64,000 nt of DNA from positions 6,014,001-6,078,000 of the forward strand of contig CM075988.1 of the NCBI GenBank assembly GCA_038087875.1, given 5' to 3'. A program made the translations under genes and the position numbers. Within the stretch, counting starts at the first letter, position 1, and each line of letters starts with the position of its first letter. The stretch is from Malacoraja senta (Eukaryota). Below the pieces are notes generated by a model. That model did not search any database and was not told the DNA's origin. It saw only the letters and a list, made by a program, of their open reading frames with translations. Below are positions 18,770 to 58,934 of this stretch, piece by piece.

Positions 18770-19668
18770 AAGCCGGCGCCCTGTCAGCAGCGTGTCAGTT
18801 TTTTTCAACTTTGTTTGGTTTTTTAGTATGTTTAAATGTATGTTTTTAATGTTTCTTTGTGTGTCTTGTGTGGGGGGTGGTGTGGGGGGGGTGAGGGGGA
18901 AACCGTTTCGGTCGCCTCCTCCACGGAGAGGCGACTTTTTCCATGTCGCCTCCCCCGTGGCCTAACATCGAGGATCGGGCGGCCTTTCCCTGCAGACGAG
19001 CCCGGGGCTTCAGCGGCGGGCACAACGTGGACTCTCGCCGTGGAGCGGGCGAGCCCTCGCTGGGGCTCGCCGGAGGGGAGCGCTCCGTTCGCTAGCCCGC
19101 GGCAGCCGGCAGCCTGAAGCCGCGGTCTGCAGCCTGGGATCCCTCATGGGGGACCCGGGAGAGGAAGAAGCTTCCACTCCGCCTGCCGGCCCGCGGCCAA
19201 CGTCTACCGTGGGCGCGGCATGGACTTACCATCGGGAGCGGGGTCCCTCGCTGGGGATCCCTGGAGGGGAGCTTCGACCGACTGCCGGCCCTGCGGTCTG
19301 CGTTGCTTCTGGCTGCGGCGCGAACTTTAAATCACCGACCACCGGCCTACGGCCTACACCAACCTGAAGCCGCGGTCTCCGGGGTCTCCGGAGGCACCGA
19401 TTCAGGACTTACCTTGACTTTCATTCATCTGGACGCCCGCAGCGGCGACTGCGGAGGATTGAGGTCCTGACCACGGGGGAAAATTGAGGAGGACTGGCCA
19501 AATTTTGTGCCCTCCACCACAGTGATGAATGCTGTGGTGGATGTTTGTGTTAAATTTTTATTGTGTTTTTGTGTGTTCTTTCTCATTGTACTGCTGCTGG
19601 CAAATTCATTTCACTTGCTCTTTATGTGCAATGTGACGAATAAAACCGTATTGTATTGTATTGTATTG
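18770..19668 (+). mobile_element. GC-rich non-coding retroposon, copy A (Rex1-type tail)
   Basis: T-tract, G-tract, CpG-rich body, then GTGACGAATAAA and (GTATT)n tail. Homologous to 51072-51773 and 57958-58788. Confidence 0.7.
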
Positions 19669-19999
19669 TTAGAATCGACTGTACACTAATTCCCGTCCAT
19701 TAAACAACCTATGTTTCACTACACTGTTTCCTGTTCTTAACTTAAATTATTTTATCTGCTGATCACTTTCTTTCTTTTATCAATTTATTTTATTATTTAA
19801 TATAACATACTCAAATCCCTGGATAACATGCTCCCTGCTACCGTGTATTTGTGGACTGGCAGGATAATCAAGCGTGCATCTGTGTCTGCTCCGAGTGTAA
19901 CATACTCAGCAACCAGACCCTGTTTACACTTTGCTTGGCCGGCCAACAACAGACTCCTGAAATAGAGAGGCAAGCCTTGAGTCTTGTCAAGAGAAGGGA

Positions 20000-22900
20000 A
20001 CCAACAGCTGATTCTTATTGAAATCAAAAATATTGGTTTAATAATTAAACTCTGATATATATATATGTTATAAGGAAATATCAGGGTAAAATTGTATTAT
20101 ATATATGAATGTGAGGCCTCGTTTTAATATTTTAATATGTTATGATTAACTAAGAGAGCGGAGCGAGTTGAGCAACAACGCAATGGAAGTCAAAATAAGG
20201 TTTTTCCCCACCTACAGGTGGGTCACTTGCTACAGTGCCGACTATAGACACTGTAGCCTCACTCTTTTAGTTTTTTTTTTATTACATAAAATCACTTGTT
20301 TGTGTTTTGTGTTTAGTGATAAGAATAATATGGACATACCAACAAAAGTTAATAATTCAAAAACTCCCCCAATACCTAAAGACCTGGGATATGGACGCAC
20401 CACAAGATTCAAAGGTACTATAATTATTCAAAATGCATGACACCACACAAAAGAACCTAGGAGGAGTCTCATTTTGTAGTTGGAATATAAGAGGCATTAA
20501 TGAACCTATCAAAAGGGGTAAGATATTAGCTCAGCTAAAAATGTATAATTCTGACATTACCTTCCTACAAGAAACACACCTAAAACCTCAGGACCAAGTT
20601 AGGCTGAGGGCGAAATGGATAGGTCAAACATACCACTCTTCATTCACTTCAAAATCTAGAGGCACGTCAATTATCATAAGAAAAGGTATACCATTTAAAG
20701 CAAAGAATATTATAACAGATATAGAAGGGAGATACCTAATAGTTAATGGAGAAATCCATGACACTCCACTTACTTTGGTAAATATATATGCCCCTAACTT
20801 TGATAACCCCCACTTTTTCAATAAAATCTTCAATATAATTGCAGAGTCAAACTATCAAAATGTTATAATAGGCGGAGACTTTAATTGTGTTTTAGACCCG
20901 TACTTAGATAAATCAAGTCAAAAACAGAGAGGGAATATGAAATCGAAAACTGGGGAACTCCTCAATACCTACATAAACAACACTAATATAGCAGATGTTT
21001 GGAGAATTGTGAACCCAACTGGCAGGGAATATTCGTTTTACTCAATGGTACATAAGACATACTCACGTATAGACTACTTTCTGCTGGATACAAAATTAAT
21101 CCCCCAAACATCTAATGCAATATATCATACAAATTCAATTTCAGACCATTCTCCACTAACTTTCTTTTTAAAACTGGAAGGATTGTCTAAGAATAATTCA
21201 TTCTGGAGATTTAACTCTCAAATTTTAAAAGATCCACAAGCGAGTATATATTTAAAAGAACAAATGGAGGTCTTTTTTCAAACAAATGATACTTCAGATA
21301 TATCGCCTACTTTACTTTGGGAATCTTTTAAAGCATACATTAGGGGTATTATAATTTCATATCAAGCTTTTCAAAATAAAAAGAATAAGAATGAACAAAG
21401 ACAGTTAGAAGAACTTATTAGACAAATGGATATAGATAATGCTAAAGATTCAACAATAGATAAACATAATAAAATAATAATTTTAAAATTTAAATTAAAT
21501 AAATTATTATCTGCCAAACTTATAAGACTTTTTCAAATTACAAAACAAGAGCACTTTGAATTTGGGGATAAACCGCATAAACTTTTGGCTCGCCAGCTAA
21601 AAAAACGAGAAAAGGAACATACTATACCAAAGATCAAATCAGATAAAGGGGAATTATTAACAACACCGAAGGATATTAATAAAAGATTTGCGCAATTTTA
21701 CGAGAATTTGTATACATCTAAAACGATAATTGATTCCAATAATATCACAAAGTTCTTGGATACCTGTAATCTTCCAAAGTTAGAGCTGAAGGAACAAGAG
21801 GAACTGGGTGCACAAATCTCAATTAAGGAATTAGAAGATACAATAAACTCACTAAAAAATGGAAAAACACCAGGCCCTGATGGATTTACTAATGAATTTT
21901 ATAAAAACTTTTATGAAAAAATAATACCAAGATTACAAAAAATGTACCAATACGCTTTTAAAAAACGAATACTACCTGATACATTAGCGGAATCAACGAT
22001 TACATTAATACCTAAGAAAAATAAGGATTTAGAAGATCCTGGCTCATATAGAGCTATAGCATTGTTAAACACAGATCAAAAAATATTAGCGAAAACATTA
22101 GCCAGAAGATTAAGTAAATACATTAGTAAATTAATAAACCCAGATCAGACAGGGTTTATCCCTAAGAGATACTCTTCTAATAATATGAGACGTCTACTCA
22201 ACATAATGCACTCACACAAATCTGAAGATCAAGAATTATCAATTATTTCGCTGGATGCTGAAAAAGCATTTGATCAAGTAGAATGGAATTATATGGATAA
22301 AGTATTACAAAAATTTCAACTGGGAGAGAATTTTATTTTATGGATTAAGTTACTATATAACAAACCTACAGCTAGAATACTTACTAATAACATATTATCC
22401 TCGAAATTTCAACTATCAAGGGGAAATAGACAAGGATGCTCATTATCACCACAGCTGTTTGCTCTCATTATTGAACCGCTAGCAGAAAAAATTAGAATAC
22501 ACCCTGATATTCATGGATATAATACTAAAGACTCATATAATAAAATATCTTTATACGCGGATGATATATTATTGTATATTACAAAACCTCAAATCACTAT
22601 ACCAAATATATTAAATTTAATTGAAGACTTCGGATCTTTTTCTGGATATAGAATAAATTGGAATAAAAGTGAAATTATGTCAATAAAACCGAAAGATTCA
22701 ACACATCTTTTAAAATTCCCTTTTAAAATAGCTACAGAAAAATTTAAATATTTGGGAATCGAAATTACCAGAGCATATCAAGGTATGCTCAGGGCAAATT
22801 TTGACCCCCTACTTAATAAACTGAATACATTAATTAAATTCTGGAAAACGCTTCCGATGTCTTTAATAGGCCGAATAAACGCAATAAAAATTATCTTTTT

Positions 22901-24641
22901 ACCACAAATTTTATACCTATTTCAATCAATTCCTATATACTTACCTAAGAAGTTTTTTAAAAAACTCGACTCAGATATCACTAATTTTATATGGGACTAT
23001 AAATCACATAGAATACAAAAAACCCATCTGAATAAATCTAAAGTATTGGGAGGTCTAGCACTACCCAATTTTATGTATTATTATTGGTCAGTAAATATTA
23101 AAAACATGATTCAACTGATGGATAACTCCGCCCAGCAAGTAGACTGGATTGTAATGGAGAAAGAGGATTGCTCCTCTAGAAACATTGGAGCGATCCTCCT
23201 CTCTCCAATGAAATTGAATAACATAAACTATAATAAGAACCCAATTATTCATAGTACAATCCGTATTTGGAAACAAATAAAACAAAATTTAAAATTAAGA
23301 AACTTATCACTTTTATTACCTATAGTCAATAACCCTTCGTTTAGTCCTTCTATTATAGATAAAGCTTATACACAATGGGATAGACTAGGAATTAAAACGC
23401 TTGGTGACTTGTATGAAACTGGAAAATTACTTTCATTTCAACAATTACAAATAAAATATAAACTCGGAAATAATCAATATTTTAAATACTTTCAAATATG
23501 CGACTATTTGAAAAAATATATAAAAGATCATCATAATAACCCAGCAGATGTACTGGACGAGGCAATGCAGACAAAAGCGGAATCAGCAAACTTAATATCA
23601 TATTTGTACAATATTATCTTAAATGTACAAATACCATCTACGGAGGGTATCAGAAGAGACTGGGAACAAGAGTTAGCTATTAAAATTTCAAAGGAAAGTT
23701 GGAATGAATACTTATTAAAAGTACATAAATGCTCGATTAATGTAAGACACACTTTAATACAATTTAAAATTTTACATAGATTATATTATTCGAAAACTAA
23801 AATTCATAAAATTTTCCCAAACGTATCATCTATTTGTGATAAATGTCAATCCCAAGAAGCAACTATAGCGCACTCATTTGTCTTCTGTACAAAAATTCAA
23901 AAATTTTGGAATGAAATTTTTGAAATCTTTACAAAGTTATTTAAAACAAGACTGATACCCAAAGCAGAATGGATTATCTTCGGAATAACGGAAGATGATC
24001 CAGAACTAAATGTGTTTCAAAAGAAATTAATGGATTATGGGTTAATAACTGGAAAAAAGCTAATTCTAAAATTTTGGAAGAAGGCTCCAATACCAACTAT
24101 AAATATGTGGATTTCAAATATGTTTGAAACACTACACCTTGAAGAGATAAGACTCCTCCTAGCAGGTAAACCAGATCACTTCCACCTGACGTGGTCTGCA
24201 TTTATAGAATTATTACAAACATAGGGTGCAAAAGTACTTTAAAAAAATAAAAAATTGAGGTCGGGTAAGGGGGGATGATAGTTGAAGAGTTGGTATGTCC
24301 TATTTACGTGATGCTCAAAAAAAAAAAACATTTGTTTTTCTTTTTTTCTCTCTCTCTTTTCTTTTCTTAGGGCCTATTTCTTAACTCTTTTTTTTTTGTT
24401 TTTAATTTCGCTTTCATAGGGTCCTCGTCCTTTTTTTTTTTTGTTGTTACATTTTCTACACTTTTCTACACTTGCACTTTTTCCTTCACTTTCTTCTCTC
24501 TTTCAATCTTTTCTTTCTTTAGCGTAAAAAAAAAAATAAAGGGAGTACATTAATTGTAAGAAGATATAAATGACGAGTATTAATGTATGTGGCTGTGATG
24601 TAATGTACTTCTAATAAATAAAAATTTAAAAAAAAAAAAAA
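20000..24641 (+). mobile_element. L1-clade LINE, 5'-truncated (ORF1 missing), inserted in a decayed RTE remnant
   Basis: TSD AAGAGAAGGGA at 19989-19999 and 24642-24652. AATAAA plus poly-A at the 3' end, T-rich 3' UTR and intact ORF2. Confidence 0.93.
20433..24224 (+). CDS. L1 ORF2p (APE endonuclease, reverse transcriptase, CCHC), 1263 aa
   Basis: Motifs SWNIRG, LQETH, GGDFN, SRIDY, SDHSP, PGPDG, SLDAEKAFD, RQGCSLSP, YADD, KYLGI and CDKC..HSFVFC. No stops. Confidence 0.95.
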   Translation: MHDTTQKNLGGVSFCSWNIRGINEPIKRGKILAQLKMYNSDITFLQETHLKPQDQVRLRAKWIGQTYHSSFTSKSRGTSIIIRKGIPFKAKNIITDIEGRYLIVNGEIHDTPLTLVNIYAPNFDNPHFFNKIFNIIAESNYQNVIIGGDFNCVLDPYLDKSSQKQRGNMKSKTGELLNTYINNTNIADVWRIVNPTGREYSFYSMVHKTYSRIDYFLLDTKLIPQTSNAIYHTNSISDHSPLTFFLKLEGLSKNNSFWRFNSQILKDPQASIYLKEQMEVFFQTNDTSDISPTLLWESFKAYIRGIIISYQAFQNKKNKNEQRQLEELIRQMDIDNAKDSTIDKHNKIIILKFKLNKLLSAKLIRLFQITKQEHFEFGDKPHKLLARQLKKREKEHTIPKIKSDKGELLTTPKDINKRFAQFYENLYTSKTIIDSNNITKFLDTCNLPKLELKEQEELGAQISIKELEDTINSLKNGKTPGPDGFTNEFYKNFYEKIIPRLQKMYQYAFKKRILPDTLAESTITLIPKKNKDLEDPGSYRAIALLNTDQKILAKTLARRLSKYISKLINPDQTGFIPKRYSSNNMRRLLNIMHSHKSEDQELSIISLDAEKAFDQVEWNYMDKVLQKFQLGENFILWIKLLYNKPTARILTNNILSSKFQLSRGNRQGCSLSPQLFALIIEPLAEKIRIHPDIHGYNTKDSYNKISLYADDILLYITKPQITIPNILNLIEDFGSFSGYRINWNKSEIMSIKPKDSTHLLKFPFKIATEKFKYLGIEITRAYQGMLRANFDPLLNKLNTLIKFWKTLPMSLIGRINAIKIIFLPQILYLFQSIPIYLPKKFFKKLDSDITNFIWDYKSHRIQKTHLNKSKVLGGLALPNFMYYYWSVNIKNMIQLMDNSAQQVDWIVMEKEDCSSRNIGAILLSPMKLNNINYNKNPIIHSTIRIWKQIKQNLKLRNLSLLLPIVNNPSFSPSIIDKAYTQWDRLGIKTLGDLYETGKLLSFQQLQIKYKLGNNQYFKYFQICDYLKKYIKDHHNNPADVLDEAMQTKAESANLISYLYNIILNVQIPSTEGIRRDWEQELAIKISKESWNEYLLKVHKCSINVRHTLIQFKILHRLYYSKTKIHKIFPNVSSICDKCQSQEATIAHSFVFCTKIQKFWNEIFEIFTKLFKTRLIPKAEWIIFGITEDDPELNVFQKKLMDYGLITGKKLILKFWKKAPIPTINMWISNMFETLHLEEIRLLLAGKPDHFHLTWSAFIELLQT

Positions 24642-26008: not shown

Positions 26009-26068
26009 CGTTGATCAGAGGGGTGTTCTCCGCACATCCTGTGCCCTCTTCCGCAGCATGGTCCCGAA

Positions 26069-27917: not shown

Positions 27918-28751
27918 GTGCAGTATAATGTGGATAAATGTGAGGTTATCCATTTTGGTGGCAAAAACAGGAAAGCAGACTATTATCTAAATGGTGGCCG
28001 ACTAGGAAAAGGGGAGATGCAGCGAGACCTGGGTGTCATGGTACACCAGTCATTGAAAGTAGGCATGCAGGTGCAGCAGGCAGTGAAGAAAGCGAATGGT
28101 ATGTTAGCTTTCATAGCAAAAGGATTTGAGTATAGAAGCAGGGAGGTTCTACTGCAGTTGTACAGGGTCTTGGTGAGACCACACCTGGAGTATTGCGTAC
28201 AGTTTTGGTCTCCAAATCTGAGGAAGGACATTATTGCCATAGAGGGAGTGCAGAGAAGGTTCACCAGACTGATTCCTGGGATGTCAGGACTGTCTTATGA
28301 AGAAAGACTGGATAGACTTGGTTTATACTCTCTAGAATTTAGGAGATTGAGAGGGGATCTTATAGAAACTTACAAAATTCTTAAGGGGTTGGACAGGCTA
28401 GATGCAGGAAGATTGCTCCCGATGTTGGGGAAGTCCAGGACAAGGGGTCACAGCTTAAGGATAAGGGGGAAATCCTTTAAAACCGAGATGAGAAGAACTT
28501 TTTTCACACAGAGAGTGGTGAATCTCTGGAACTCTCTGCCACAGAGGGTAGTCGAGGCCAGTTCATTGGCTATATTTAAGAGGGAGTTAGATGTGGCCCT
28601 TGTGGCTAAAGGGATCAGAGGGTATGGAGAGAAGGCAGGTACGGGATACTGAGTTGGATGATCAGCCATGATCATATTGAATGGCGGTGCAGGCTCGAAG
28701 GGCCGAATGGCCTACTCCTGCACCTAATTTCTATGTTTCTATATTTCTATG
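27918..28751 (+). mobile_element. CR1 LINE 3' fragment, same family, in VSIG10L2 intron 1
   Basis: The 244-aa ORF is nearly identical to the C-terminus of the 8373-10667 ORF. TTCTATGT tail. It interrupts a Penelope terminal fragment. Confidence 0.92.
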
Positions 28752-28850: not shown

Positions 28851-29036
28851 AAGGTTTCAAAAGTTTCAAAGGTCTTTTATTGTCACGTGTACCAATTAAG
28901 GTACAGTGATATTCGAATTACCGTACAGCCATACTAAAAAACAGCAACAAGACACACAACTACATAAAAGTTCACATAAACATCCACCACAGTGGATTCC
29001 CCACATTCCTCACTGTGATGGAAGGCAATGAAGTCT
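28851..29036 (-). mobile_element. 3' fragment of the GC-rich retroposon family, copy D
   Basis: Minus strand reads TGCCTTCCATCACAG...CTGTGGTGGATGTT, then GTGACAATAAA and a (TTTGAAAC)-like tail. Confidence 0.6.
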
Positions 29037-30437
29037 AATCTATTGTGTAAGTCTGCCGTGAAAGTCTTTTAGGAGTTTATAGGTTTAACTTGCTATCCTT
29101 GATCATAATCTAAGGTGACAGGCAGGTACCAAGGAGGTATTGTGGTGTTGGGGGTGTGTGCTTTGGGCAGGATATCAAACCTGCTTAAGTGTATATATAA
29201 GTTACATGACAAAACATAAAGAACAGTGGCAAGTTTACTCGAAGAGCTGGCTGATCATATCTCTCAACCAAACCACAGAACTAGCTTGTTAAAGAAGGAA
29301 CTGCAGATGCTGGAAAATCGAAGGTACACAAACTAGCTTGACTGCTCGCTCTCTCAGCTGTCTGCAGGATCTCACTGAGGATGGGTATTGGTTCTGTTCA
29401 TCAGTAGAATGGAACTCATCACAGTTCAAAGTGATTATATGTGAGGAAAATTTAAAATGTCCATTTGTGATGCAGTGAGGCGTTATGTAAATACAAGCCT
29501 GACTGAAGAATGCGTCTGTGACGTGGGGTTACACATTGACTTTTCTCCTTCTACCTGACACTGTTGACTGCCACAACTTTCCATGTTCAGCACCGCTCCC
29601 AGTTTGCATCGATGGAGGTTGGCCACATCTAGAAGTGGTGCAAGTCTGAGTCTCTGCTTGAAGTGTGGAATCATCTGCTTAACAATCTGGTGTTCCCCTT
29701 GGCCAAGCCCTTGCGCTAATCCCGCCTTCCATGACCACATTCTCAGTCCATGGCAGCCTTCTCCTCTTTCATAGCTTTTCCATGCACCCTACCCTCTGCT
29801 TCTCTGCTCTAACACCATCTCCAACCATTACTTCTTCCTTTACTTGGACCAGGGATATGAATTTTGATTTCTCTAACTTCAAGTAACCCCTGCATTCCCT
29901 CTCTCCCCATCCCTCCCCCACCCAAGTCACACCAGCTTTCGTTCACACCCAGCTACAGCTAACAATGGCCTGTTTCCTTTATCATTGTTACTTTTTTGCA
30001 TATCTTTCATCCACCTGCTCTACAACATCGTCTATATCCCTCGTTTCCCTTTCCCGTGCCTTTCAGTCTGAAGAAAGGTCTCAACCCGAAACATCACCCA
30101 TTCCTTCTCTCCAGAGATGCTGTCTGACCCGATGAGTTACTCCAGCATTTTGTGTCTATCTTTGGCCATTACCACCTTCTTTATCCTTATACAGTAGCTC
30201 CATCTCTTCTGTACTTTCCTCCCCATTTCTCACCCTCTGAAAAAGATGACATCTCCTGCACCTGGAAGATTAGTCAAGAGTGTTTTATTGTCATATGTCC
30301 CAGATAGAACAATGACATTCTTACTGAAGAACTGAAATGCTATTTGTTCCTCTCTCCACCAACAGTGTTGGTTTATTTAGTCCTAGAGCTCTCTGCCGTT
30401 TACTTGTTCACTTAACTTGTTTTCCTTTCCAATCCAG

Positions 30438-30791
30438 GGTTGATGATCTTGGATCCGGAGGAGGTCACGTACATTGAGGCCGAGGTGAAAGGGGTCATAG
30501 GTCGATCTGTGGTGTTGGAATGCGGCCAGTCCTTGCCCACTATTTACATCTGGGGCTTCACCCGGCCTGGGTCCAGTGGCATCCGAGCCGTGCTGTATGA
30601 CTACGGGATGGGCGCCAAACTGCAGAAGATGGCTTCCGTGTTCGGTGAGGTGAAAGTGCTCTCCGACAGTGCGTCGCTGGTCATAGGCAATCTGCAGCTG
30701 GCAGCAGAGGGCCGCTTCACGTGTCAAAGCTTGTACGACAGCAACGATGGAGCCAGGCTGGTGTACATCTATGTGGATGTGCACGTCCTTG
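30438..30791 (+). CDS. VSIG10L2: VSIG10L2-like exon 2, N-terminal V-type Ig domain
   Basis: Acceptor tttcctttccaatccag, donor G|GTGAGT. Peptide SVVLEC...IYIWGF...ASLVIGNLQLAAEGRFTC has the Ig Cys/Trp pattern. Confidence 0.85.
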
Positions 30792-32194
30792 GTGAGTTTG
30801 AGATTTGAATCTGGGAGGCAGTGCAAGCCCAGTCCAGTACATTGTGCGTGATTGAGTTTTGCTGTACTTTTCTCACCAGGATGCAGATATGCATGCTCAC
30901 ATTTATTAGAGCTGCTGCCTCACAGTGCCAGAGACCCAGACTCGATCCTGACCTCGGGTGCTGTCTGAGTGGAGATTGAACGTTCTCCCTGTGTGTGTGT
31001 GTTTCCTTGGGTGCTCCGGTTTCCTCCCACATCGCAAAGATGTGCAGGTTTGTAGGTTAATTGGCCTTCTGTGAACTGCCCTCAGTGTGTATGGAATGGA
31101 TGCAAATGTGGGATAACATAGAGCTAGTGTAAACGGGAGATCGTGATGGTTGACGTGGACTCGGTGGGATGGAGAGCCTGTTTCCATCCCTGTGTCTTTC
31201 AACCGATTAAGCAATCAAGCTGGATTAGACATGACAGAAAATAAGAATCTCCAATTATATTCAGCAACATATTGTTAAGCAGATTGTTCATCTGCAATTC
31301 TCTCTGGGGTGACTGACGGTGAGTTGGATGGCTTTGTCAGGACTATTGTACTTAGGAAATAAAATTATAAAGAGCCGAGGCAAGTAGGAAGGAACCAAGG
31401 ATAAAATACATTGGTAGAAAGAATAACGAGGTGGGAATGAAGAAATATTGTTTCACCTGGATGGTGAGATGAATCTGGAACTCACTGCTGAACGAAAGGT
31501 GGAGACCAAACTCTTTCCGCCTTTATAAAAAGCCAGAGACAAAAGGCAACATTTATGAGGGGTTTTGCCATTTTGATGACGAAAGATGAGAGGATGCTGA
31601 AAGGAGATTTAATCGAGGCAAATAAATGCTGGAAGGTAAAACGAAAACAAAACACTAGAGGAATTAGCAGTCACGCAGCAGCAGTGGAGGCAAAAGTTGC
31701 AAGTTGACTTAGTTTGACTTAGATACAGTGTGGAAGCAGGCCCTTCGGTCCACCAAGTCTGCGCCGACCAATGATCACCCATACGCTAGTTCTATCCTAC
31801 ACACAAACTTGCATGTCTTTGGGATGTGGGAGGAAACTGGAACACCTGGAGAAAACCCACAAGGTCACAGGGAGAACCTGCAAACTCCACACAAACAGCA
31901 CCAGTGCCAGGATCGAGCCCAGGTCTCTTGCACTGTAAGAGCGGCATTGTGCCACTCATTGACGGTTTGAGTTAAGACCCTTTATCAACACTGGAATTAT
32001 GCTGTGTTTCTCCAGTGTATTGTTTGAGAAAAGTTAGACGTGTGTTTGAAGAACCATGGATTTCAGGGCTATGGTACTGGTGCTGGAAGGTGGCATTTGG
32101 TTGGGGTAGTTCTTATTAGACTGGCACGGAATTCATGGGCTGAATAGCTTCCTTTTGAGTTGTAATGTTTCTACGATTCAGAAAGCAATCCAGC

Positions 32195-33056: not shown

Positions 33057-33204
33057 AGTGTTCGACTTCATGAACTGGACCAAGACCACATAATCTCACT
33101 TTCCAAGCGACGGTTTCAGTCAGGGGGTAGGAGGGGTTGTTGAATTGAAGTGAAAATATCCGTGCTACTTTTGTGGAATTGACCATGTTTCTTTAACTCC
33201 ACAG

Positions 33205-33483
33205 TTCCAATTACCAACCCGTCCATTCAGATGAGCACCTCGGCGCCAGTGGAAGGCTCCACGGTTTCAATCCAGTGTTCTGTGGAGAATGGGACTGGGC
33301 CACTGGAGTACACATGGAGCAGGCAGGCCACTCTGTCCAGGAGCCCCGTCAACATCTCCCAGACAGACAGCAGCCTGCTCAACCTCACCACGGTAAACAG
33401 GAACCACACCGGCTGGTACACCTGCTCTGCCAGGAACGAGGTGAATGAGGCCACCAGCAACCGGGTCTGGCTCGACGTCATCT
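33205..33483 (+). CDS. VSIG10L2: VSIG10L2-like exon 3, Ig domain
   Basis: ccacag|TTCCA...ATCT|GTGAGT. Peptide VSIQC...YTW...HTGWYTC; phase 1-1. Confidence 0.88.
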
Positions 33484-33704
33484 GTGAGTCCCCATCAGTA
33501 CTCGGACAGCAGGACTTATTGACCTGTGCAGTTGAAGATCATAAGGTCATGAATGATTGGAGCAGAATTAGGCCATTCGGCCCATCAAGTCTACTCCGCC
33601 ATTCAATCATGGCTGATCCATCTCTCCCTCCTAACCCCATTCTAATGCCTTCTCCCCATAACCTCTGACAAGAGCTCCTGGTGGGTCGAGATGTTCTGAA
33701 AGTC

Positions 33705-37957: not shown

Positions 37958-38018
37958 AAAAAAAATTCATCACTGTCTTGCTCTTGAACTGATGGTGGCT
38001 CACCCTGTTATTTTCCAG

Positions 38019-38294
38019 ATGGACCCGATCAGCCAGCCATCAACATAACTCCCTACTCTCTCAATTCAGTCGGTTACTCAGCCATTGAGCAAGACACCGT
38101 GTCTATGATCTGTTCAGCCCCTTCCAACCCACCCAGCCAGTACGTGTGGTTCCACAACAACTCACAGGTCTACGCCGGGCAGCAGTTTATCATCGAGAGG
38201 ATCTCCCAAAGTCAGACGGGGACGTACATGTGCCTTGCCCACAACACAGTCCTCAACACCAGAACTAAGTCCGCCATCCTACTCACTGTCTACT
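38019..38294 (+). CDS. VSIG10L2: VSIG10L2-like exon 4, Ig domain
   Basis: ttttccag|ATGGACCCGAT (YGPDQP) to TACT|GTGAGT. Peptide CSAPSNPPSQYVW...QTGTYMC. Confidence 0.88.
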
Positions 38295-41200
38295 GTGAGT
38301 AGAATTTAATCACAAATGATTTGGTTTCACGAATTCTTCTGCAATTCAAACGGAACGCGAAAAAACTGCAGATGTTGGCTATCTGAAATATAAATTCTGG
38401 CAAAACTCGGCTGGCCAAGCAGCATCTGTGAACGACCATCCTCTGGAAACATTGATTGTGTTTCTCTCTTCACAGATGCTGCCTGACCTTGTGAGTATTT
38501 CCAGCATTTTCTGTTTTATTTCAATTCTCTGTGTTCTCTTGCCTTCACTGTGTTACTGAACGCAGTGATCTTAGGAAAGCTCAATTTTTTGGCAAACGTC
38601 AAGATTGTCGATGATATGGAGACCTCTTAAACCTCTGTTGTGAGATTAATAAACTTGTGATGTGCAAGGTGCTGTCAGCATATTATTGTAACATCCTGCA
38701 CCAATTCCGAACACTATCATTGAGGCAGTCGACACAGCTGTGATGGCTTTTTGTATTGCGAGTACAACTTAGGACAGATCCAGATTAATTGAAATATGGC
38801 TTTGGAAAGGGACTGATGTTTTCTGTGAATGCTATGATATTATTCTCAAACAATTATCTATCACGTAATGAAATAATTATGCGACATTATACTCAGAATG
38901 TACAGTAAATGGAAGCTGAAACAGGGGGCATAGGTTGCATGAATGGAAGTTATTGTTGTACCCTCGGCCATCTTTCTGGCTAAAATCAGCCACCGTAGTT
39001 ACTGTCAGGGTCTGCCACAGTGGAAGACATTTATGATTTCATGGAATAGAGAGTTCTACGGCGTGAGGTATAAATGGAGTCAATGGAAGGGAGGTAGGTT
39101 TGTGTGATGGTCTGGGCTGCATCCACAATTCTCTGCAATTTCTCGCGGTCTTGGATGGAGCTGTTCCAAAACCGAGCTGCGATGCATCCTGATAAAATGC
39201 TTTCTATGGTGCATCTGTATGAAATACATATAATGGAAATGTGGCACTAGATCATTCCTTTGTGATGTTTGTGGAAGGCATTAAGATTTGCGGGTTCATT
39301 TTTGCCCACCTTTGCTCAGGTATTAACCACCTTACACCCAGCCACCACAGGCATTAACCACCTTACACCCAGCCACCACAGGCTTGGGTGCTTTTCCCAA
39401 TAACCGCCGTCTTCGATGCTCGATAACAGATTCCCGTGAGTCCAAGCAGATGAATCACATATATCTAAGGTAGACAAAGGTGCTGGAGAAACTCAGCGGG
39501 TGCAGCAGCATCTAAGGAGCGAAGGAAACAGGCAATGTTTTGGGCCGAAGCCCTTCTTCAGACTGATGTAGGGTGGGGGGGATGGGGAGAAGAAAGGAAA
39601 AAAGGAAAAAGGAAGAGGAGGAGCCTGAGGGCTGAGGGAGAGCTGAGAAGGGGAGGAGACAGCAAGGGTTACCGGAAATTGATGAATTCAATGTTTATGC
39701 CACTAGGGTGCAGACTGCCCAAGTCTGTGGTGCTATGAGGTGCTGTGCCACATATATCTGAATGTTATCCAGGCACCTAGATCTCATGCTTAAAGAAGAT
39801 GTTAGGAAGAACTAGCCTAGTTGACGTGATGACTACTTCAGTACATTGGTATTGTGATGGTGATAGAGGCAAAAATCATAAGGTCATAAGGTCATAATTG
39901 ATTGGAGTAGAATTAAGCCATTCAGCCCATCAAGTCTACCGCCATTCAATCATGGCTGATCTATCTCTCCCTCCTAGCCCCATCCTCCTGCCTTCTCCCC
40001 ATAACCTCTGACACCTGCACAAATCAAAAATCTATCTCTGCCTTAAACATATCTGCCGATTTGGCCTCCACAGCCTTGTGTGGCAAAGAATTCCAGATTC
40101 ACCACCCTCTGACAGAAGAAATTTCTCCTCATCTCCTTCCTAAAAGAACGTCCTTTAATTCTGAGGCTACGACCTCTAGTCCTAGACTCTCCCACTGGTG
40201 GAAACATTTGAAGTCCATTTGAATGGAGTTGGTTGCTTGGACAGGAATACTGAGGATCACCCTCACTGTGATCTCGTGTCCATGGTGAGATGTCTACTTT
40301 AAAATCATAGCATCTCTGGGGTATACCTGTTCAGAATATACCCAGTTGGTCGGCACAGTGACATAGCGGTAGAGCTGCTGCCACACGGAGTCAGAGAGCA
40401 AGGTTTGATCCTGACTACGGGCACTATCTGTAAGGAGCTTGTACCTTCTTCCGGGTGCTCCAGTTTCCTCCCACATTCCAAAGACACGCAGGTTTGTAGG
40501 TTAATTGACATCTGTAAATTACCCCTAGTATGTAGGATGCAAAAGTGGGATGACATAGAACTAGTGCGAATGGGCGATCAATGGTCGGCGTGGACTGGAA
40601 GGGCCAAAGGGTCTGTTTCCATACTATATCTCTAAACAGAATAGAATGTATTTTTCTTGAGAATGAAGCCAACATTCTCCCTCAATTATGGATTCACCTC
40701 AGAAGAACACCACGTCTGACTAACTTTTACTTCTTGAAATTTGCCACTTTTGGCATTGTACAAGTCAAGTCAGAGGTTCTGCAGATTCAGAATGACGGAG
40801 GCAGTGTGGAATGGAAGACACAATTTCTGTTTTCAATCTGTTTAAATTACCCTGTCTCTCTATGGAACATCAGAGGCAACTAGCTTCAAGCTAACATTTG
40901 CCCTTTAACCCCTTTCCTTTGCACCGTCTAGGAGTCCTTACAGGTGGAAGATCATCTTTGCCCTCTCCATTTTCAACATTCAATAGGGATTGTTCATCTT
41001 GCAACCCTTCCATCTCCATCAACTCCCTATGGCACTTTCCCACACTATTTTAGAGATGCAACTCCTGCTCTTTTACCTCCCCACCACATCCCCTTCACCC
41101 CCCAACGGTCCTTCTAGGTGAAATGCCAGGCCTCGTTAATCTCAGCATGAAACTATTTTAATTGCTGCATTTTTGACATTGGGTATCTGAATTGTACTAG

Positions 41201-45241: not shown

Positions 45242-46218
45242 GGCGGCACAATGGTGCAGTGGTAGAGTTGCTGCCTTACAGCGCCAGAGACCCAGGTTCA
45301 ATCTTGATTACGGGTGTTATCCGTACAGAGTTTGTTCGTTCTCCCTGTGACCATGTCGGTTTCTCCAGGTCCTCCCACAGACACTCCAAACACATGCAGG
45401 TTTGTAGGTTAATTGGCTCTCGTAAATAGTAAATTGTCCATAGTGTGTAGGATAGTGTAAGTGTATGGGGTGATTGCTGGTCGGAGCGGACTCAGTATGC
45501 CGAAAGGCCTGTTTCTACACGGTATATCTAAAGTCTAAAGTAAAGTAAAGACTATTTGATCTTAAAATGTGCTTGTGTTTTGGTTATCCCCCAGTGTTGC
45601 CTGAAGGCCGGCCCACATGTACTGCAACCAGCGTGAAGAGCTTGGTATATACCATGCTGTCGTGTAGCTGGGAAGGGGGCCTACCACAGGCTTCACTGCA
45701 ATGGACAGACTGGAGAAGTGTCTTCTTGGGCAAGGCTGAACGATCCATCAACAACCAAGTGCTAAAGTCCAGCCCAGCATACAATGGCAAGCAATTCATC
45801 TGCCAAGCAACACATCCGTTGACCAGAAGTAGGTCCTGCAACATTCAACTAGGTGAGGAGCGCTTCTGAGAAAAATATTATTTTACAGTTGCCATGCACA
45901 GCGGTACCGTGGTGCAGCGGTAGAGTTGCTACTTTACAGCGCTTTCAGTGCCAGAGACCCAGGTTCAATCCTGAATACGGGTGCTGTCTGTACGGAGTTT
46001 GTACGTTCTCAACCTGACCACGTGGGTTTTCTCCAAGATCTTCGGTTTCCTCCCGCTTTCCAAAGACGTACAGATTTGTAGGTTAATTGCCTTACTATAA
46101 ATGTAAATTGTCCCTAATGTGTGTAGGATAGTGTTAATGTGCGGGATCGCTGGTCAGCATGGACTCGGTGGGCCGAAGGGCCTGTTTCCGCACTGTATGT
46201 TCTAAACTAAGCTAAACT
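45242..46218 (+). mobile_element. Two HE1/V-SINEs closely flanking exon 6 (45242-45550 and 45901-46218)
   Basis: Full-length direct copies about 45-50 bp from each splice site. Confidence 0.82.
45595..45852 (+). CDS. VSIG10L2: VSIG10L2-like exon 6, Ig domain
   Basis: cccccag|TGTTGCCT to CTAG|GTGAGG. Peptide LSCSWEGGLPQASLQW...FICQATHP. Confidence 0.85.
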
Positions 46219-48288: not shown

Positions 48289-48519
48289 TAAAACTCTCCA
48301 CAGACAGCACCCGAGGTCAGGATCGAACCTGGGTCTCTGGCGCTGTACGGCAGCAACTCTACCGCTGCGCTAACAGGTCGCCCAAGGGCAATCAAACTTC
48401 AGGAAATCTATGTTGAAATACTTGGAATTCAGCACAACCTCTACCCGGGATCTCCTGTCCTTAGCGGGAGTAAAGGTGTTATTGAGATCTATAATTGACA
48501 GCTTTCGTCCTGATTGCAG

Positions 48520-48810
48520 AGGCTCCCAACCTTCTCACCCCGAGAAATGCAGTGACAGTTTTCGAGGGGAGTGATGTCCACATGACCTGCGTCCTCAAAG
48601 CTGCCTACCCCGCCTCAGAGATCGCCTGGCACAACAACAGGAACGAAAGCATCTGGCTCAAGCCCAAGAAGTACCAGCTTCACCACGAGGCCTTCTGGTC
48701 AAACCTGACCATTCGGGAGACAGACGGAGACGTCGACAATGGAACATACTGGTGCACATCCGTCAACGTGGTGGGGAGTGCGACTATGGGCATCAAGCTC
48801 CGTGTGAACA
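48520..48810 (+). CDS. VSIG10L2: VSIG10L2-like exon 7, Ig domain
   Basis: ttgcag|AGGCTCCC to AACA|GTGAGT. Peptide VHMTC...IAW...DNGTYWC. Confidence 0.85.
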
Positions 48811-48852
48811 GTGAGTCAGCCTCTCCCCACTGCTTAGCTCTGTAGAAAGTAA

Positions 48853-50712: not shown

Positions 50713-51071
50713 TAAAGGAACATCCTTTACTTCTGAGGCTGTGACCTCTAGTCCTAGATTATCCACTAGTGGAAACATCATCTCCATATCCACTCTATCC
50801 AAGCTTTTCACTATTCTGCACATTTCAATGAGGACACCCTTATCGTTCTAAACTCCAGCGAGTACGGGCCCAGTGTTCGTCAAACGCTCATCATATGTTA
50901 TTCCACTCATTCCTGGCATCATTCTTGTAAACCTCCTCTGGACTCTCTCCAGAGCCAGCACATCCTTCCTCAGATATGGTGCTCAAAATTGCTCACAATA
51001 CTCCAAATGCGGCCTGACCAGCGCCTTATAGAGCCTGAGCAATACATCCCTGTTTTTGTATTCCAGCCCCC

Positions 51072-51773
51072 TTTCTTCCAGCTGCTTCTTCGCCCCTTCC
51101 TCGCGGCCTACCATTGAACCTGGAGCGGCCTTTCCTGTCGGGACCGGCCAGGATTACAGCTTCGGCGGCGTCACAGCGCTGGGATACCAACACGGGGCGG
51201 GCGATGCCCTCTCCGGGTCACTGTGCGGTGACCACCGACTCCAACATCGAGGAGCTGTGGCTGCGGAGCGTCCAGCCGCGGACGGCGCTGGATTTAAAAC
51301 ACCGCGGAGCCTGGGATCCGAGATGGCCAGAGTCGGAGCACCAGCCAGCGCGGCCTGAGGACTACGAGTGCCGCGGTCTCCGGGGAGGAAGCAGCCGCTC
51401 CAGACATTTTCCAAGCCACTGAGGAGTGTTTACCCGACTCCGGAGTCCCAGCTTTCCGGCAAAGAGGGCCTGAAAACACCGGACTGGCTGCGGAGGCCAC
51501 AAATAGGCCCCGACCTTGGGTGTTTCTCAGAGGAAGAGGACTTAACTTTTTGATGCCTTTCCCCACATTGGAAAAATTTGATTCTGTTGTGGGGGGACAT
51601 TCATGTTGAATTGTATAATGTGTTATGTCATTTTTCTGATTTTTAATTTTTCTATGGATGTACGGAAACTTTATTATTTCTTTTATTATTTATTTTATGT
51701 AAAGCACTTTGGTTTCAACGCGAGTTGATTTAAACATGCTATATAAATAAAATGTACTTACTTACTTACTTAC
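51072..51773 (+). mobile_element. GC-rich non-coding retroposon, copy C (L2-type tail), nested in a CR1 fragment
   Basis: Body motifs shared with copy A (GGCCTA.CAT...GCGGCCTTTCC and GCCGCGGTCTCCGGGG). Tail TGTAAAGCACTTTGG...GCTATATAAATAAA(TACT)n. Confidence 0.7.
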
Positions 51774-53792: not shown

Positions 53793-54856
53793 CCATTCCT
53801 TCTTTCCAGAGATGTTGCCTGACCTGCCGAGTTAATCCAGTATTTTGGGACAATCTTTTTGAACTTTGATCACCCTGCTCTAGAAACTGTCGTTAAGCTT
53901 GGGAGTAAACTGAACTGAATGTGTTTTTCTTGATGGCTCTGCATGCTGTGCTACTGCAAATGATTGTCCCTCTGCCCCTCACAGAGTATCCTACGCCGCC
54001 AAATGTCACCATCAGCAAGCTGTTGTACGGCCGCCAGCGGACGGAGGTGGTCCTGGAGTGGATAACCAGAGGGGTTGGCGATTTAACCGGCTTCATGGTG
54101 CAGAGGAGGCCAGCAAGGAGGTCCCTCGCTGGTCGGGCCATAGGCAACTTGAAGGAGTCCATCGTCGAACCACACATTCCCTGGCAGGTTGTCGCCAATG
54201 CCATTGACCCTGCGGTCAGGGGTCACAAACTGGGCGGGATGGACCCTCGCGTCCTATACGCTTTCCGCATCTTGGCCGTCAATCACAGGACCACAGGGTA
54301 TCCTTCAGAAGTGAAAACTCCAGGTAGGCCATCAAATTGTTTGGGAGTTTTAAAAATAATTTCACAAGAGCAGCTAATCTCTGTCTCAGTTTGTGATTTC
54401 AAGATGACGCTGGTGTTCGTAACGTAAGATACATTTATTGTCCATTTCCAGATACAATCTTTTTGGTTGCAATCCAGCAGTATAAATATTGATTTCTCTA
54501 ACTTCAAGTATCCCTTGCTTTCCCTCTCTCTGTGTCCCTTTCTCACCCCAGTTCTCCGACTGGTTTCACTGTCTTTCTGATTAATTTTACTGATTGTATG
54601 CCTCCCTGTCACCTTCCCCTCAGCCAACAATGGACCATTCTACTTTTCCTGGGCATTGTCTACTTTGATGTGTCATTTTCACACCTTGCCCTTCCATATC
54701 TCCAGACTCCCTCCCCCCTGACGATTGGTCTCGACCTGAAACGTCACCCATTCCTTCTTTCCAGAGATGTTGCCTCACCTGCCGAGTTACTCCAGTATTT
54801 TGGGATAATCTTTTTGAACTTTGATCAACCTGTTCTCAAAACTTGCCTTTAAGCTT
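53793..54856 (+). repeat. Direct repeat of about 105 bp flanking exon 8
   Basis: 53793-53900 and 54748-54856 share CCATTCCTTCTTTCCAGAGATGTTGCCT...AATCTTTTTGAACTTTGATCA...TTAAGCTT. Confidence 0.85.
53985..54323 (+). CDS. VSIG10L2: VSIG10L2-like exon 8, fibronectin type III domain
   Basis: cctcacag|AGTATCCT to CCAG|GTAGGC. Peptide YPTPPNVTI...VVLEW...TGFMVQ...YAFRILAVN...GYPS fits FN3. Six Ig plus FN3 matches the VSIG10L2 architecture as I recall it. Confidence 0.85.
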
Positions 54857-54859
54857 TAA

Positions 54860-55640
54860 GAGTGCAGAGAAGATTTACAAGAATATTGCCAGGATTCGAG
54901 ATCTTGGGTATAGGGACAAGTTGATGCAAAGGGACTTGGGAGTGCTGGTGCAAGATTCTCAAAATGTTAATTTGTAAGTTGAATAAGTAGTAAGGAAGTC
55001 AAATGCAATGCTAGCATTTATTTTGAAAGGACTAGAATTTAAAAACAGGGATGTTAAGCTACGGCTTTATAAGGCATTGGTAGGACTGCATTTGAAGTAT
55101 TGTGAGCAGTTTTGGGCCCCACATCTGATGAAGGATGTGCTGACATTGGAGAGGGTCCAGAGGAGGTTTACGAGAATGATCCTGGGGATGATTGGGTGAA
55201 TGTATGATGAGCGTTTGACGGCACTGGGCGTGTACTCACTGGAGTTTAGAACGATGAGGGTACTCTCAGTGAAACTCATTGAAACTCACCGAATAATGAA
55301 AGGCCTGGATAGAGTGAATGTGGAGAGAATGTTTCCACTAGTGGGCGAGTCTAGGACCAGAGGCACATCCTCAGAATAAAAAGACTTACATTTAGAAAGG
55401 AGATGAGGAGGAATTTCTTTAGTCAGAGGGTGGTCAATCTGTGGAATTGATTGCCACAGGCGGTTGTGGAGGCCAAGGCATTGGGTATTTTTAATGTCGA
55501 CATTGACAGATTCTCGATTAGTAAGGGTGTCAAAGGCTATGTGAGGAGCACGGGGTTGAGAGGGACAGATAGATCAGCCATGATTGAATGGCGGAGTAGA
55601 CTTGATGTGCCAAGTGCCATAATTCTGTTCCTATGACATT
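54860..55640 (+). mobile_element. Decayed CR1 3' fragment
   Basis: MLAFILKGLEFKNRDVKLRLYKALV...LERVQRRFTRMI. Confidence 0.8.
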
Positions 55641-57784
55641 CGAACTTATGAAGCTGTGTTGACTAGATCTTTATTCCTTGGAGTGCACATAATCCTTTTC
55701 TGAGCTGACAGAGAAAGTGATTAACGCTGGTACAATAACAACATTTAAAAGAATATTGGATGAGAACATGGATCGAAAAGATTTAGTAGGATATACAGGT
55801 AAATGGGACATCTTGGCTGGCATGAATGAGTTGGGCCAAAATACCTGTTTGTGTGCTGCACCAGTCTATTGACTATTGATTCTTTGACTATTGGCTCACA
55901 GTTAACTAGGTAGCCCTTACTAGCTTGTCCACATCACAACTGCACTCCCACACTGATCACTGAACCAGCTACCTTTGAGGTGATCCAAAACTCAGGATGT
56001 TAGGATGGTGGAAAACTGGTCCTTCCTCATATAGATCTTGTGGCTTTAATGTGTTAAAACATGCAGTAAAATAGCACACTGTGAAGGGTCAAGATTAGTT
56101 TCCTGCAAGTTCATAGGAAAGATTGTTTTCATTCACATGATGTGAAATATCTTGCAAGATCTACTGAAGGGTTACAAGCTAAAGGCTAAATATGGAAAGA
56201 TTTAATAGGAGCCCGAGGGGCACCTTTGTTACGCAAAGGGTGGTAGATATATGGAACAAGCTGGTGGAGGAGGATATGTTTAGAGGTATTTGGGCCAAAT
56301 GCAGCCAGGTGCGACTAGTGTAGACGGGGCATGTTGGTCGACGTGGGCAGGATGGGTTGAAGGGCCTGTTTCCACACCGTATGATTCTATGACTCAATAG
56401 ACAATAGACAATAGGTGCAGGAGTAGGCCATTCGGCCCTTTGAGCCAGCACCACCACTCAATGTGATCATGGCTGATCATCCCCAATCAGTACCCCGTTC
56501 CTGCCTTCTCCCAAATCTTCTCTGACTCGATGATTCATGCAAATGGTCTCACAATAAGGCAGATTTACTCTTAAGTTTCTGGTGGGCAGTGGGAGCAGAC
56601 ACTCCATGTCTCTGACTGACCAGAGAACAATGTGTAGTTGGAGATGGGCTCCCAAGACAAGGGCTGTAGCATCATATGCCCCATCCCAGCCCAACACTCT
56701 TCTGCATTGACAGAGAATGAAGGACATGGCTGTTGGATTAAAGACACCACAATCATTTGAGATGCTTCATGACTAAGAACAAGCCTTTTAGCTTCTGGAG
56801 CAGACCACCATGCTCCAGTGAAGTCTTGCTCCTGAATTCAAAGTTGTCACCATTTCTAAACCACCTCTGCACCACAACATCACATCAGCATGATCTTGCT
56901 GATTGACATCACTATATGTCCCCAGTCTCTGTGTGTAAGGGAAGAGAGTTACTGCTAATGTTTGATGATCAGTTTACAGGTTAAAAGGGAATCACATAAC
57001 ACATAAAACATTGGGCTATGTGATAGTGCTTCCATCCTATCGTATACTTGCATCTGCACAAAAGATAAGGTTCGGAGCCAGCTCTTTAGTTGTCCTGCCG
57101 AGAATCTGCCAGATAGGGTTAGTGCAGGAGATTGCAACATTGGCTTTGTGAGCAGTTGTTCAGAGAAGGAGCCTCTCAGGGTGGAGAGCTATGATGGTGG
57201 GGGGAAGGTAGTCGATCAAGAAATCCAATGATGGCCTGAAATGTACATTAACTAGGTCATTATTGGATCTACACCCATGCAGATACATGGACAATATTTA
57301 ATCACATTCTAGGCTTGGAGATAGTGGGAGAATGAGCAAAGCAATAAACTCATCGCCTCTGGCCTGCACTTTTAGCCACAGTATTAATGTGATATGCCAG
57401 TTGAGTAACAGGTTACGATGACCCCAGGGATGCTGACAGTGGGAAACTCAATGGAAATGCCATTGGAAGGACAAATGCAAGAGGAAAGTATATGGAGAAC
57501 ATCGGGACCCTTAAGAGCATCGATGTGTAAAGGGAACTTGGGTACACATCCATTGCTCCCTAAAAGTAGCAACAGAAGTGGAAAGGGTGGTAAAGAAGGC
57601 ATTCGCCATGCTGGCCTTCATCAGTCGGAGCACAGAGTCCACAGTCTGACGTGTTACAGGTGTATAAACCTTTGGTTAGGCCACCTGTGGTATATTGTGT
57701 GCAGCTCAGGTCACTGCATTACAGGAAAGATGTGTAGCTTTTGGAGATAGTGCAGAAGAGGTTTAACTGGATCGGAGTGAATTA

Positions 57785-58934
57785 TGGGCCTTTCCCACAT
57801 GTGATTTTTTTCGACACCCGTCATAGTCACAGCAGGTCTCCGAAAATGTTCAACATGTTGAAAATCCAGTGACGACCAGAACAAGGTACGACTCTTTGGG
57901 CGACTACTCATGACCATACAGGCTTCACCTCACGACATGTCGCCAGTGTGTCGCCTGCTTGGTGGGCAGCGCGACTCTCGTTTGCAGCGGCCTCTGCAGT
58001 CCGTCTGTCTTTTTATTATTTTTGTCTCGTTTTTATGTAGTTATTTATTTATTTTTTTGTCGGGGTATGTGTGTGGGGGGGTGGGGGGGGGGGAACTTTA
58101 AAATCTTTCCCCTGCACGGGAGACCCGACCTTTTCTTTGTCGGGTCTCCGTTGTCGTTGGGGCTGGGCAACGTGGAGCGGCCTCCAGCAGGAACGACCTG
58201 GGGCTCCAGTTGCGGAGCTGCGGACGACTCACCGTCGCGGGGCTGGCCGAGTCCGGAGCGGGTGAAGCTGTGGTGGACACAATCGCTGCTGCTACCCGAC
58301 CCCCGGAGATTCGGAGGCTACAACCGCGGGTCTGCCGGACGGCAACACCGGAAGCTTTTCGGGGTTTCCGCAGCGGCGACTTCTCCCTCCCGAGTTGCGG
58401 GGTTGAAGAGCACCTGGAGCGGGGCTTTACATCGTCGCCCCGCGCGGCTTGGAATGGCCGCCGGACTTTGCGAGCGCACGCCGGGGCTCTAACACCAAGA
58501 CCCGGTGCGCGACCTTGCATTAACCGGCGTGGCTTTAATGGCCGCGGGATAATCACCATCGCCCGCCGGGGGCTTTGATTTTGACTCTGACATCGGGGGG
58601 GGGGGGGGGTTGCAGTGGAGAGATACATTTTTTGCCTTCCATCACAGCGCTGTGATGGATGTATGAGTAAATTGTGTTGTGTCTCGGGTCTTCTTCGTTT
58701 TGTAATGTATGGCTGCAGAAACGACATTTCGTTTGGACCTCAACGGGGTCCAAATGACAAATAAATTGTATTGTATTGTATTGTATTGTATGGTCGTGAG
58801 TAGTCTCCTCAGTCACCCAAAGAGTCGTAGCGTCTTTCTGGTCGCTGCTGAATTTTCAACATGTTGGAAATTTTCGGCGACCTATGACGGGTGCCGGCAA
58901 TCGCCGAAAAAGTCGCGTAAGTAGGACAGGCCCA
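57785..58934. mobile_element. PIF/Harbinger-type MITE split by retroposon copy B
   Basis: TTA TSD at both ends; same family as 61191-61530. Confidence 0.8.
57958..58788 (+). mobile_element. GC-rich non-coding retroposon, copy B (Rex1-type tail), nested in a MITE
   Basis: Same layout as copy A; ends TGACAAATAAA(TTGTA)n. It splits the MITE at CCTG|TATGG when compared with the intact copy at 61191. Confidence 0.75.

Follow-up and report, generated by a model that had tools for sequence, protein, structure and literature searches.

The closest described system to the elements considered here is Persaeus, a short internally deleted element (SIDE) of Lepidoptera that derives from the CR1-group long interspersed element (LINE) Zenon (PMC6740152). 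As sources of bipartite elements without an open reading frame (ORF), the accessible text of Kojima 2018 names only RTE, Ingi, Vingi and R2, and it documents the exchange of tails (PMC5786205). Rays are among the animals highest in coverage by another LINE clade, Rex1, which reaches 6.6% in the little skate (PMC13343379). A stretch of 64,000 nucleotides (nt) from Malacoraja senta (GCA_038087875.1, contig CM075988.1; the window in what follows) contains four segments, A, B, C and D, that are related copies of a non-coding retroposon (Table 1). They probably belong to a high-copy family of bipartite, non-autonomous, SIDE-like derivatives of Rex1, with a common GC- and CpG-rich non-coding body and two hairpins.

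Four related copies and their targets

Kinship among the copies was measured by local-alignment scores against 300 dinucleotide shuffles per pair (x/300 gives shuffles per 300). The bodies are alike between A and B and between A and C (0/300 each) and between B and C (5/300), and the segment from the 3′ hairpin to the tail is alike in every pair scored: A-B, A-D, B-D and C-D (0/300 each), B-C (3/300) and A-C (7/300). A and B also have in common the T- and G-tracts and the 5′ hairpin region (0/300 for each), but their heads are not significantly like each other (264/300), so that of the head, tracts and hairpin which a preliminary description of this DNA had given the pair in common, the tracts and hairpin stand and the head does not. 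C shows no significant likeness in the 5′ hairpin region (152/300 and 296/300) and starts at or within that hairpin. The four insertions lie where the same description had put them, and its long non-coding retroposon family, with LINE-type 3′ tails that differ among copies, is supported by the tail alignments.

Anatomy, homology and insertion into intact targets can be observed directly in these copies, and they bear the marks of retroposition: they are dispersed, B and C have empty paralogous sites, and C and D are 5′-truncated. The target of B is a palindromic repeat resembling the miniature inverted-repeat transposable elements (MITEs), present twice (57782-57957 plus 58790-58938, and 61187-61533), and the intact second copy displays the empty site; the 3′ side of the insertion has microhomology to (ATTGT)n, and there is no long duplication. 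C lies in a repeat fragment that likewise has an intact paralogue. For A, reads were taken from four of 22 listed runs, with DNA runs from three other organisms, and were placed on A only, at 80% likeness. Its left edge appears as a step in depth at about 18770; flank contigs from the three DNA runs match up to 18765 and end there, and equal depths return on the right (23.5, 22.1 and 28.6). An empty orthologous site in the three runs may be inferred, the joint being absent from the rows shown. Loose read ends reveal a family head longer than that of A. A link of A to the L1 at 20424-24224 was rejected because the flanks of A are near single-copy. This L1 (plus strand) carries an intact 1266-aa ORF2 of L1/Tx1 type with endonuclease (EN), reverse transcriptase (RT) and zf-RVT domains, a 3′ untranslated region (UTR) and a poly(A) at about 24625; no ORF1 of at least 100 aa lies immediately upstream.

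Table 1. Coordinates of the four copies, their parts and the reference elements in the window
Feature	Position	Strand	Remarks
Copy A	18766..19669	+	near full length, ~20 nt of family 5′ end missing
A, Rex1-type 5′ terminus	18769..18849	+	degraded start-codon head and T-tract; short hydrophobic frame, then stop
A, G-tract and 5′ hairpin	18862..18959	+	stem 18928-18952; z -4.8
A, body	18960..19500	+	GC-rich, CpG-rich; imperfect repeats 19054-19081/19245-19272, 19095-19128/19345-19378
A, 3′ hairpin	19513..19541	+	
A, terminal stem-loop	19606..19669	+	Rex1-type; AATAAA, (ATTGT)n
Copy B	57958..58789	+	full length, inside MITE-like repeat; uninterrupted paralogue 61187-61533
B, Rex1-type 5′ terminus	57961..58040	+	GCGCG-N-GCAGCGGC at 57969-57991, ATG lost; T-tract
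B, G-tract and 5′ hairpin	58076..58149	+	stem 58120-58148; z -4.1
B, 3′ hairpin	58638..58659	+	
B, terminal stem-loop	58729..58789	+	AATAAA, (ATTGT)n
Copy C	51070..51773	+	5′-truncated near 5′ hairpin; in repeat fragment, uninterrupted paralogue ~55021-55029 (minus)
C, variant 3′ hairpin	51558..51597	+	
C, non-Rex1 tail	51697..51773	+	TGTAAAGC ... CTATATAAAT, (ACTT)n; like tail of tRNA-headed SINE
Copy D	28851..29036	-	short, 5′-truncated: 3′ hairpin (28983-29022) and Rex1-type tail
Reference: 5′-truncated Rex1 LINE	11984..12680	+	ORF C-terminus and ~180 nt 3′ UTR without 3′ hairpin
Reference: short Rex1 3′ fragment	10640..10886	+	last codons and 3′ UTR without 3′ hairpin
Reference: tRNA-headed SINE	6833..7192	+	A/B boxes; tail resembles that of C

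Origin of the two ends

The 5′ boundary of B, fixed by the empty paralogue, coincides with a Rex1-type head. Heads were compared with the CR1-group consensuses of PMC13343379 (Supplementary Table 2, rows to at least 972), over the first 400 nt of each. In these consensus starts the 8-mer GCAGCGGC has 44 matches: 28 fall in the first ~45 nt of a Rex1 consensus, two are internal to Rex1 and 14 belong to other clades. Its extended form, GCGCG-N-GCAGCGGC, occurs once in the window, eleven nt inside the 5′ junction of B (0/100 shuffles). The family head of A recovered from reads, GGCGCTGCAATGGCGGC, compared by eye over 17 nt, departs from the HypSab_Rex1-4 start in a single substitution and a single missing base, and the heads of A and B each appear to resemble a different Rex1 5′ end. 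A head of the form ATGG(C/T)G opens 12 of the 19 little-skate Rex1 rows seen in that table, and in most cases a short segment rich in GC and then a tract rich in T come next; full-length Rex1-like proteins open with MA(A/P) and then a hydrophobic run. Five Rex1-like ORFs (P0016, P0022, P0044, P0078 and P0119) have MA(A/P) and a hydrophobic, signal-peptide-like segment encoded by head and T-tract. The head frames, ALSAACQFFSTLFGFLVCLNVCF-stop in A and AARLSFAAASAVRLSFYYFCLVFM-stop in B, resemble Rex1 N-termini. This short frame is not conserved, since B lacks the ATG and a stop appears at about codon 10 in one consensus from the reads. Head and T-tract together are, to judge from their sequence, a relic of the Rex1 terminus and its first codons, and homology to the 5′ end of an autonomous LINE is found at the level of motifs, not of a full alignment. 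By analogy with human L1 (PMC4859970) one might guess that the head has a YY1-like role.

The preliminary description saw a SINE-like RNA (SINE, short interspersed element) and named no source for its head; head and T-tract agree with the 5′ terminus of Rex1 LINEs. Could the family nonetheless be an orphan SINE-like structured RNA, with a head of non-LINE origin and borrowed LINE tails? It has no credible ORF, as that description had held, and its local hairpins contain compensatory pairs. SINEs with GC-rich heads of unknown origin are also on record (PMC5786205). A and B boxes are lacking in A, B and C, and the regular expression that misses them there finds both in the tRNA-headed SINE of the window (6843/6888), so that a head derived from a small RNA (tRNA, 5S or 7SL), as in canonical SINEs, is absent by a search whose positive control was found. 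In B, nevertheless, the motif of Rex1 5′ ends stands in the head where it would be expected, and in the right frame; the family head of A corresponds to another Rex1 head type. Both copies further depart from the canonical SINE, which has no long T-run before its 3′ end: runs of at least five T near the 5′ end, which oppose transcription by RNA polymerase III (Pol III), occur as T7 at 18799 and three more before 18941 in A, and as four before 58060 in B. An orphan of this kind is very unlikely. A Rex1-type head joined to Rex1-like tails instead suggests that A and B are bipartite Rex1 derivatives and not Pol III SINEs.

The tails are judged against Rex1 fragments in the window itself. The frame at 11984-12499 is the end of a Rex1 ORF, whose longer homologues carry RT and PF09004; the fragment is assigned to Rex1 because 8 of 15 homologues of at least 900 aa have the N-terminal motif encoded by published Rex1 5′ ends (the link to the published rows was made by eye). 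The frame at 10646-10717 closes with the same C-terminal motif. Six Rex1-type tails, those of A, B and D and of three window Rex1 fragments, have a terminal stem-loop before GACAATAAA-like words, with stems that differ. The tail of A is nearest to the 10808 fragment (0/300) and that of D to the 12600 and 30340 fragments (0/300), even though the sequences just before these two tails are closely similar; with B at 1-6/300, all three copies show homology to a LINE 3′ end that has a stem-loop and a repeat tail, and the Rex1-like tails of the preliminary description hold up. The tail of C matches none of the three window Rex1 tails (148-237/300); its one match is to the SINE tail at 7115-7178 (1/300). 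The likeness between these two tails had been noticed before and is upheld. Their label as L2, which came with it, is presumed here. The SINE in question (6833-7192, plus strand) has a (GTGTGAATGT)n middle repeat.

Recognition by the ORF2 protein of L2 is strict for its own stem-loop, and exchanged loops do not work (PMC4176376); a changed tail would therefore imply a changed partner. Extending this strictness from L2 to Rex1 is an inference by analogy. The reference fragments also bear on whether a separate non-autonomous element exists at all, or whether the copies are 5′-truncated pieces of one long LINE 3′ UTR. The truncation of C and D and the RNA reads that reach upstream of the aligned head of A would fit the latter. 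B, however, begins exactly at a LINE 5′-end motif within an otherwise intact target, low-depth contigs continue from the head into 200-1180 nt unlike the window, and the 3′ UTRs of the window Rex1 fragments are AT-rich and ~180-200 nt long, all of which makes one long 3′ UTR hardly credible.

Body, hairpins and transcription

Between the ends lies a body of 63-67% GC, in which the ratio of observed to expected CpG is 0.85-1.01 against 0.50 in the window. The 3′ hairpin pattern is found three times in the window (A 19508-19541, B 58633-58659 and D 28983-29027, minus strand), a number reached in 0/100 shuffles, and with the variant in C it is common to all four copies, as first described. When an 80-nt window was slid along A, B and C, 11 of 56 positions gave a folding z of -2 or below, so the conserved fold once claimed is true of local hairpins and not of the whole body; the further hairpin z-scores come from hand-picked windows. 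The covarying 5′ stem of the preliminary description had to be moved to the stem positions of Table 1, where two of the eight loop-proximal pairs are compensatory between A and B. In the 3′ stem one pair occurs as C-G, T-A and T-G and another as A-T versus C-G. These compensatory changes are real but few, and covariation over two to four sequences is anecdotal and suggestive. In A the 3′ arm of the 5′ stem is duplicated (18911-18918 and 18945-18952), so that two exclusive folds are possible; the upstream arm copy is present in family RNA reads and absent in B. Splice-donor-like words on the minus strand (GGTAAG, GGTGAG and GGTAGG) occur in the bodies of A, B and C (19230, 19413, 58233 and 51112), with no evident enrichment over a window background of about 1.2 per kb per strand.

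Nothing in the body points to a protein. With 120 Rex1-like proteins as queries, the best tblastn E-values on A-D are 0.004-0.66 (control 2e-107), the best match of B being on the minus strand, and none of the ten ORFs over A, B and C has a Pfam match above cut-off (a single GATase_2 match, E 0.04, is below its own). The copies thus have no RT or EN coding capacity and lack the EN-RT ORF of ~1000 aa of an autonomous Rex1 LINE. A coding body was rejected: all-frame blastp among A, B and C gives a best E of 0.007, in minus frames and low-complexity ends, with no consistent frame. Common indels of the family in reads are of 1, 2, 4 and 5 nt. A ribozyme of hepatitis delta virus (HDV)-like or hammerhead type was also rejected, as the GCC-loop-GGC word of A and C is not conserved in B; an ad hoc HDV descriptor, not backed by a positive control, gave no match, and no hammerhead core word is found on the plus strand of A or B. 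Rfam, a check that the preliminary description had called for, returned no curated RNA at gathering score in the copies and, by E-value, chance-level matches only. The 3′ hairpin pattern is absent from the viral contigs and prokaryote genomes searched, and its three metagenome matches are all chance by their flanks; Rex1 protein against viral contigs gave 16 pattern matches, none of them confirmed.

High abundance and RNA coverage are likewise matters of observation. Summed contig depth over three runs is ~20-60 in the flanks, 2 × 10^4 to 5 × 10^4 in the first element bin and 4 × 10^4 to 1.5 × 10^6 in the remainder, peaking at both hairpin regions of A. Summed depth is not a copy number, but since the ratio of element to flank is 1,300-43,000 in run X8, the A family may fairly be put at thousands of copies or more. 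In poly(A) RNA run X22, from the same study as X8 and from an organism other than that of the window, 13,101 of 7,335,232 records (0.18%) fall on A. First mates on the minus strand exceed those on the plus strand 14-22 fold over 18770-18979 and 2.5-8 fold beyond, which, for a library of the usual type, would mean sense RNA. RNA is deepest in the first ~380 nt, and its ratio to DNA depth is 10-70 fold lower at the 3′ hairpin than in the first bins. These data would also fit read-through, expressed subfamilies that have diverged or, if the orientation is reversed, capture of the antisense A-tract by oligo-dT. Splicing within the element was rejected, as each of the 15 listed joints (of 180) is backed by at most one RNA read.

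Where does such a body come from? One alternative is that body and hairpins are the 5′ and 3′ UTRs of uncatalogued or extinct Rex1 or L2 elements, with A, B and C as independent internal-deletion products and no swapping of ends. Persaeus arose several times independently (PMC6740152); GC-rich repeated 5′ regions are present in the batoid consensuses LeuEri_Rex1-7 and -15, HypSab_Rex1-6 and PriPec_Rex1-1 (PMC13343379); and a body 9-mer matches HypSab_Rex1-6 in its GC-rich 5′ region, with another short match adjoining, which keeps a UTR origin alive. The RNA peak over the first ~380 nt is also what a common 5′ UTR would give. On the other side, diagnostic words of hairpins and body have no match within the consensus starts compared, the two window Rex1 3′ UTRs do not contain the 3′ hairpin, and the same body and hairpin are followed in C by a tail that is not Rex1 and in A and D by Rex1 tails that differ from each other. 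Independent deletion products are, on this evidence, unlikely. The fact that heads and tails differ while the middle is common suggests an exchange of ends.

For the bipartite Rex1 family that is preferred here, the following life cycle may be proposed. A full copy would retain the first ~60-90 nt of a Rex1 LINE, that is a AAGATGGCG-type head and the T-rich part that in Rex1 spells out the first, hydrophobic codons, together with the last ~60 nt, comprising stem-loop, AATAAA and microsatellite. T-runs near a 5′ end should stop Pol III. Given these early T-runs, and since bipartite LINEs are thought to be transcribed by RNA polymerase II (Pol II) (PMC5786205), transcription would be by Pol II, from the Rex1-derived end and the CpG-rich body. 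The ORF2 protein of the cognate LINE would recognise the tail stem-loop, and target-primed reverse transcription would follow, with frequent 5′ truncation as in C and D. The body may have survived across lineages because its heads and tails were exchanged by template switching, between Rex1 subfamilies and probably also with an L2.

Several observations weigh against this family as described. No autonomous partner that agrees in both head and tail came to light, and comparisons with RT/EN, Rfam and consensus starts yielded no source for the 600-700 nt of body. The head was assigned from short motifs and by eye, against the first 400 nt of the consensuses, and two of the five little-skate L2 rows seen share the head type, which makes the head Rex1/L2-like and not strictly Rex1. 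The tail of B is weakly like all three window Rex1 tails. There is no pile of RNA starts: reads extend upstream, with loose ends before 18769 and 18778 of median 53 and 51 nt, medians near expectation for 151-nt reads crossing a boundary. The weakest link is the L2-type tail of C, as a switch from Rex1 to L2 is based on one copy and a presumed clade label. A match to a known LINE, which would have spoken against the preliminary description, exists in part: the ends come from a known LINE clade, and the element is to be classed among bipartite non-autonomous LINEs.

A bolder extension, which remains doubtful, likens the body to the CORE, V and Deu domains. It would then be an old, selected RNA module, their Pol II counterpart, around which Rex1 and L2 ends have been swapped, and whose hairpins, with a cap-proximal short frame that comes from Rex1, might guide the RNA to ribosomes at work on Rex1 protein, in the way that SRP9/14 acts for Alu. 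The resulting superfamily would extend across rays and track horizontally acquired Rex1 and L2 partners.

Setting and comparison with known systems

Repeats are plentiful in the window, which is vertebrate DNA: it contains ORFs of CR1 and L1 type, Penelope-like GIY-YIG fragments and Rex1 fragments. Its SINE and CR1 tails, taken with the high Rex1 coverage of rays (PMC13343379), would suit an elasmobranch, probably a skate or ray. Six plus-strand Ig/FN3 frames (30416-30805, 33183-33665, 37988-38299, 45549-45866, 48495-48842 and 53909-54424), with five Ig-type matches and one FN3 match in Pfam, two of them weak, are exons of an Ig-superfamily receptor or adhesion gene, and C stands in sense orientation between the fifth Ig exon and the FN3 exon. 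A CR1-type RT is present as a 766-aa open fragment at 8096-10673 (minus) and as a second copy of 832 nt at 27919-28750 (plus), 94.6% identical, a young family. Elsewhere are a GC-rich tandem array of ~53-54 nt units at 16508-16992, Penelope-like fragments with weak GIY-YIG matches at 37559-37900 and 59166-60002 (minus), and at 13425-13847 (minus) a weak phage-integrase SAM-like domain (E 1e-4, below cut-off), possibly a fragment of a tyrosine-recombinase retroelement or a Crypton.

No description of this Rex1-derived family was found in the literature searched, which was mostly open papers and did not cover Repbase Reports. The family is real and probably uncurated, though an element so abundant is likely to sit already in automated repeat libraries. 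If the bipartite reading is right, Rex1 joins the short list of LINE clades that spawn ORF-less bipartite parasites, in a vertebrate and at thousands of copies or more, and Kojima's route of LINE ends around an exchangeable middle works without a Pol III head. For the annotation of ray repeats, part of the Rex1 coverage might, speculatively, be these elements. The natural series of tails offers substrates for studying RNA recognition by Rex1 ORF2, which has been worked out for L2 (PMC4176376), and insertions that differ among related organisms could be used as phylogenetic markers.

How do these copies compare with described elements, as far as the accessible texts portray them? Persaeus is built in the same way, from a LINE 5′ end with the start of the ORF, an unrelated centre and a LINE 3′ end; it too belongs to the CR1 group, lacks a Pol III promoter and is abundant, at up to 10^5 copies. 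It differs in size (263-386 nt against 830-920 nt here) and in host (Lepidoptera against a vertebrate), the ends here being Rex1 and L2-like, and its centres are taxon-specific, whereas here they are homologous across lineages with different ends. RIME, NARTc, Bov-A, RTE-N, the Vingi derivatives and the R2 SIDEs likewise combine 5′ and 3′ LINE ends, are presumed to use Pol II and occasionally exchange tails (PMC5786205), but the greater part of the present element belongs to neither end, and it gave no sign of a 5′ end like a ribozyme. SINE2-5_NV, which goes with Rex1-24_NV (PMC3747384), is non-autonomous and has a Rex1 tail, but is a tRNA-headed Pol III SINE of a sea anemone. The CORE, V and Deu SINEs and the bird SINEs with GC-rich heads of unknown origin (PMC5786205, PMC7245038) share with this family a conserved middle that outlives LINE-derived tails; the present element has neither a tRNA, 5S or 7SL head nor A/B boxes, and its head appears to be the 5′ end of a LINE.

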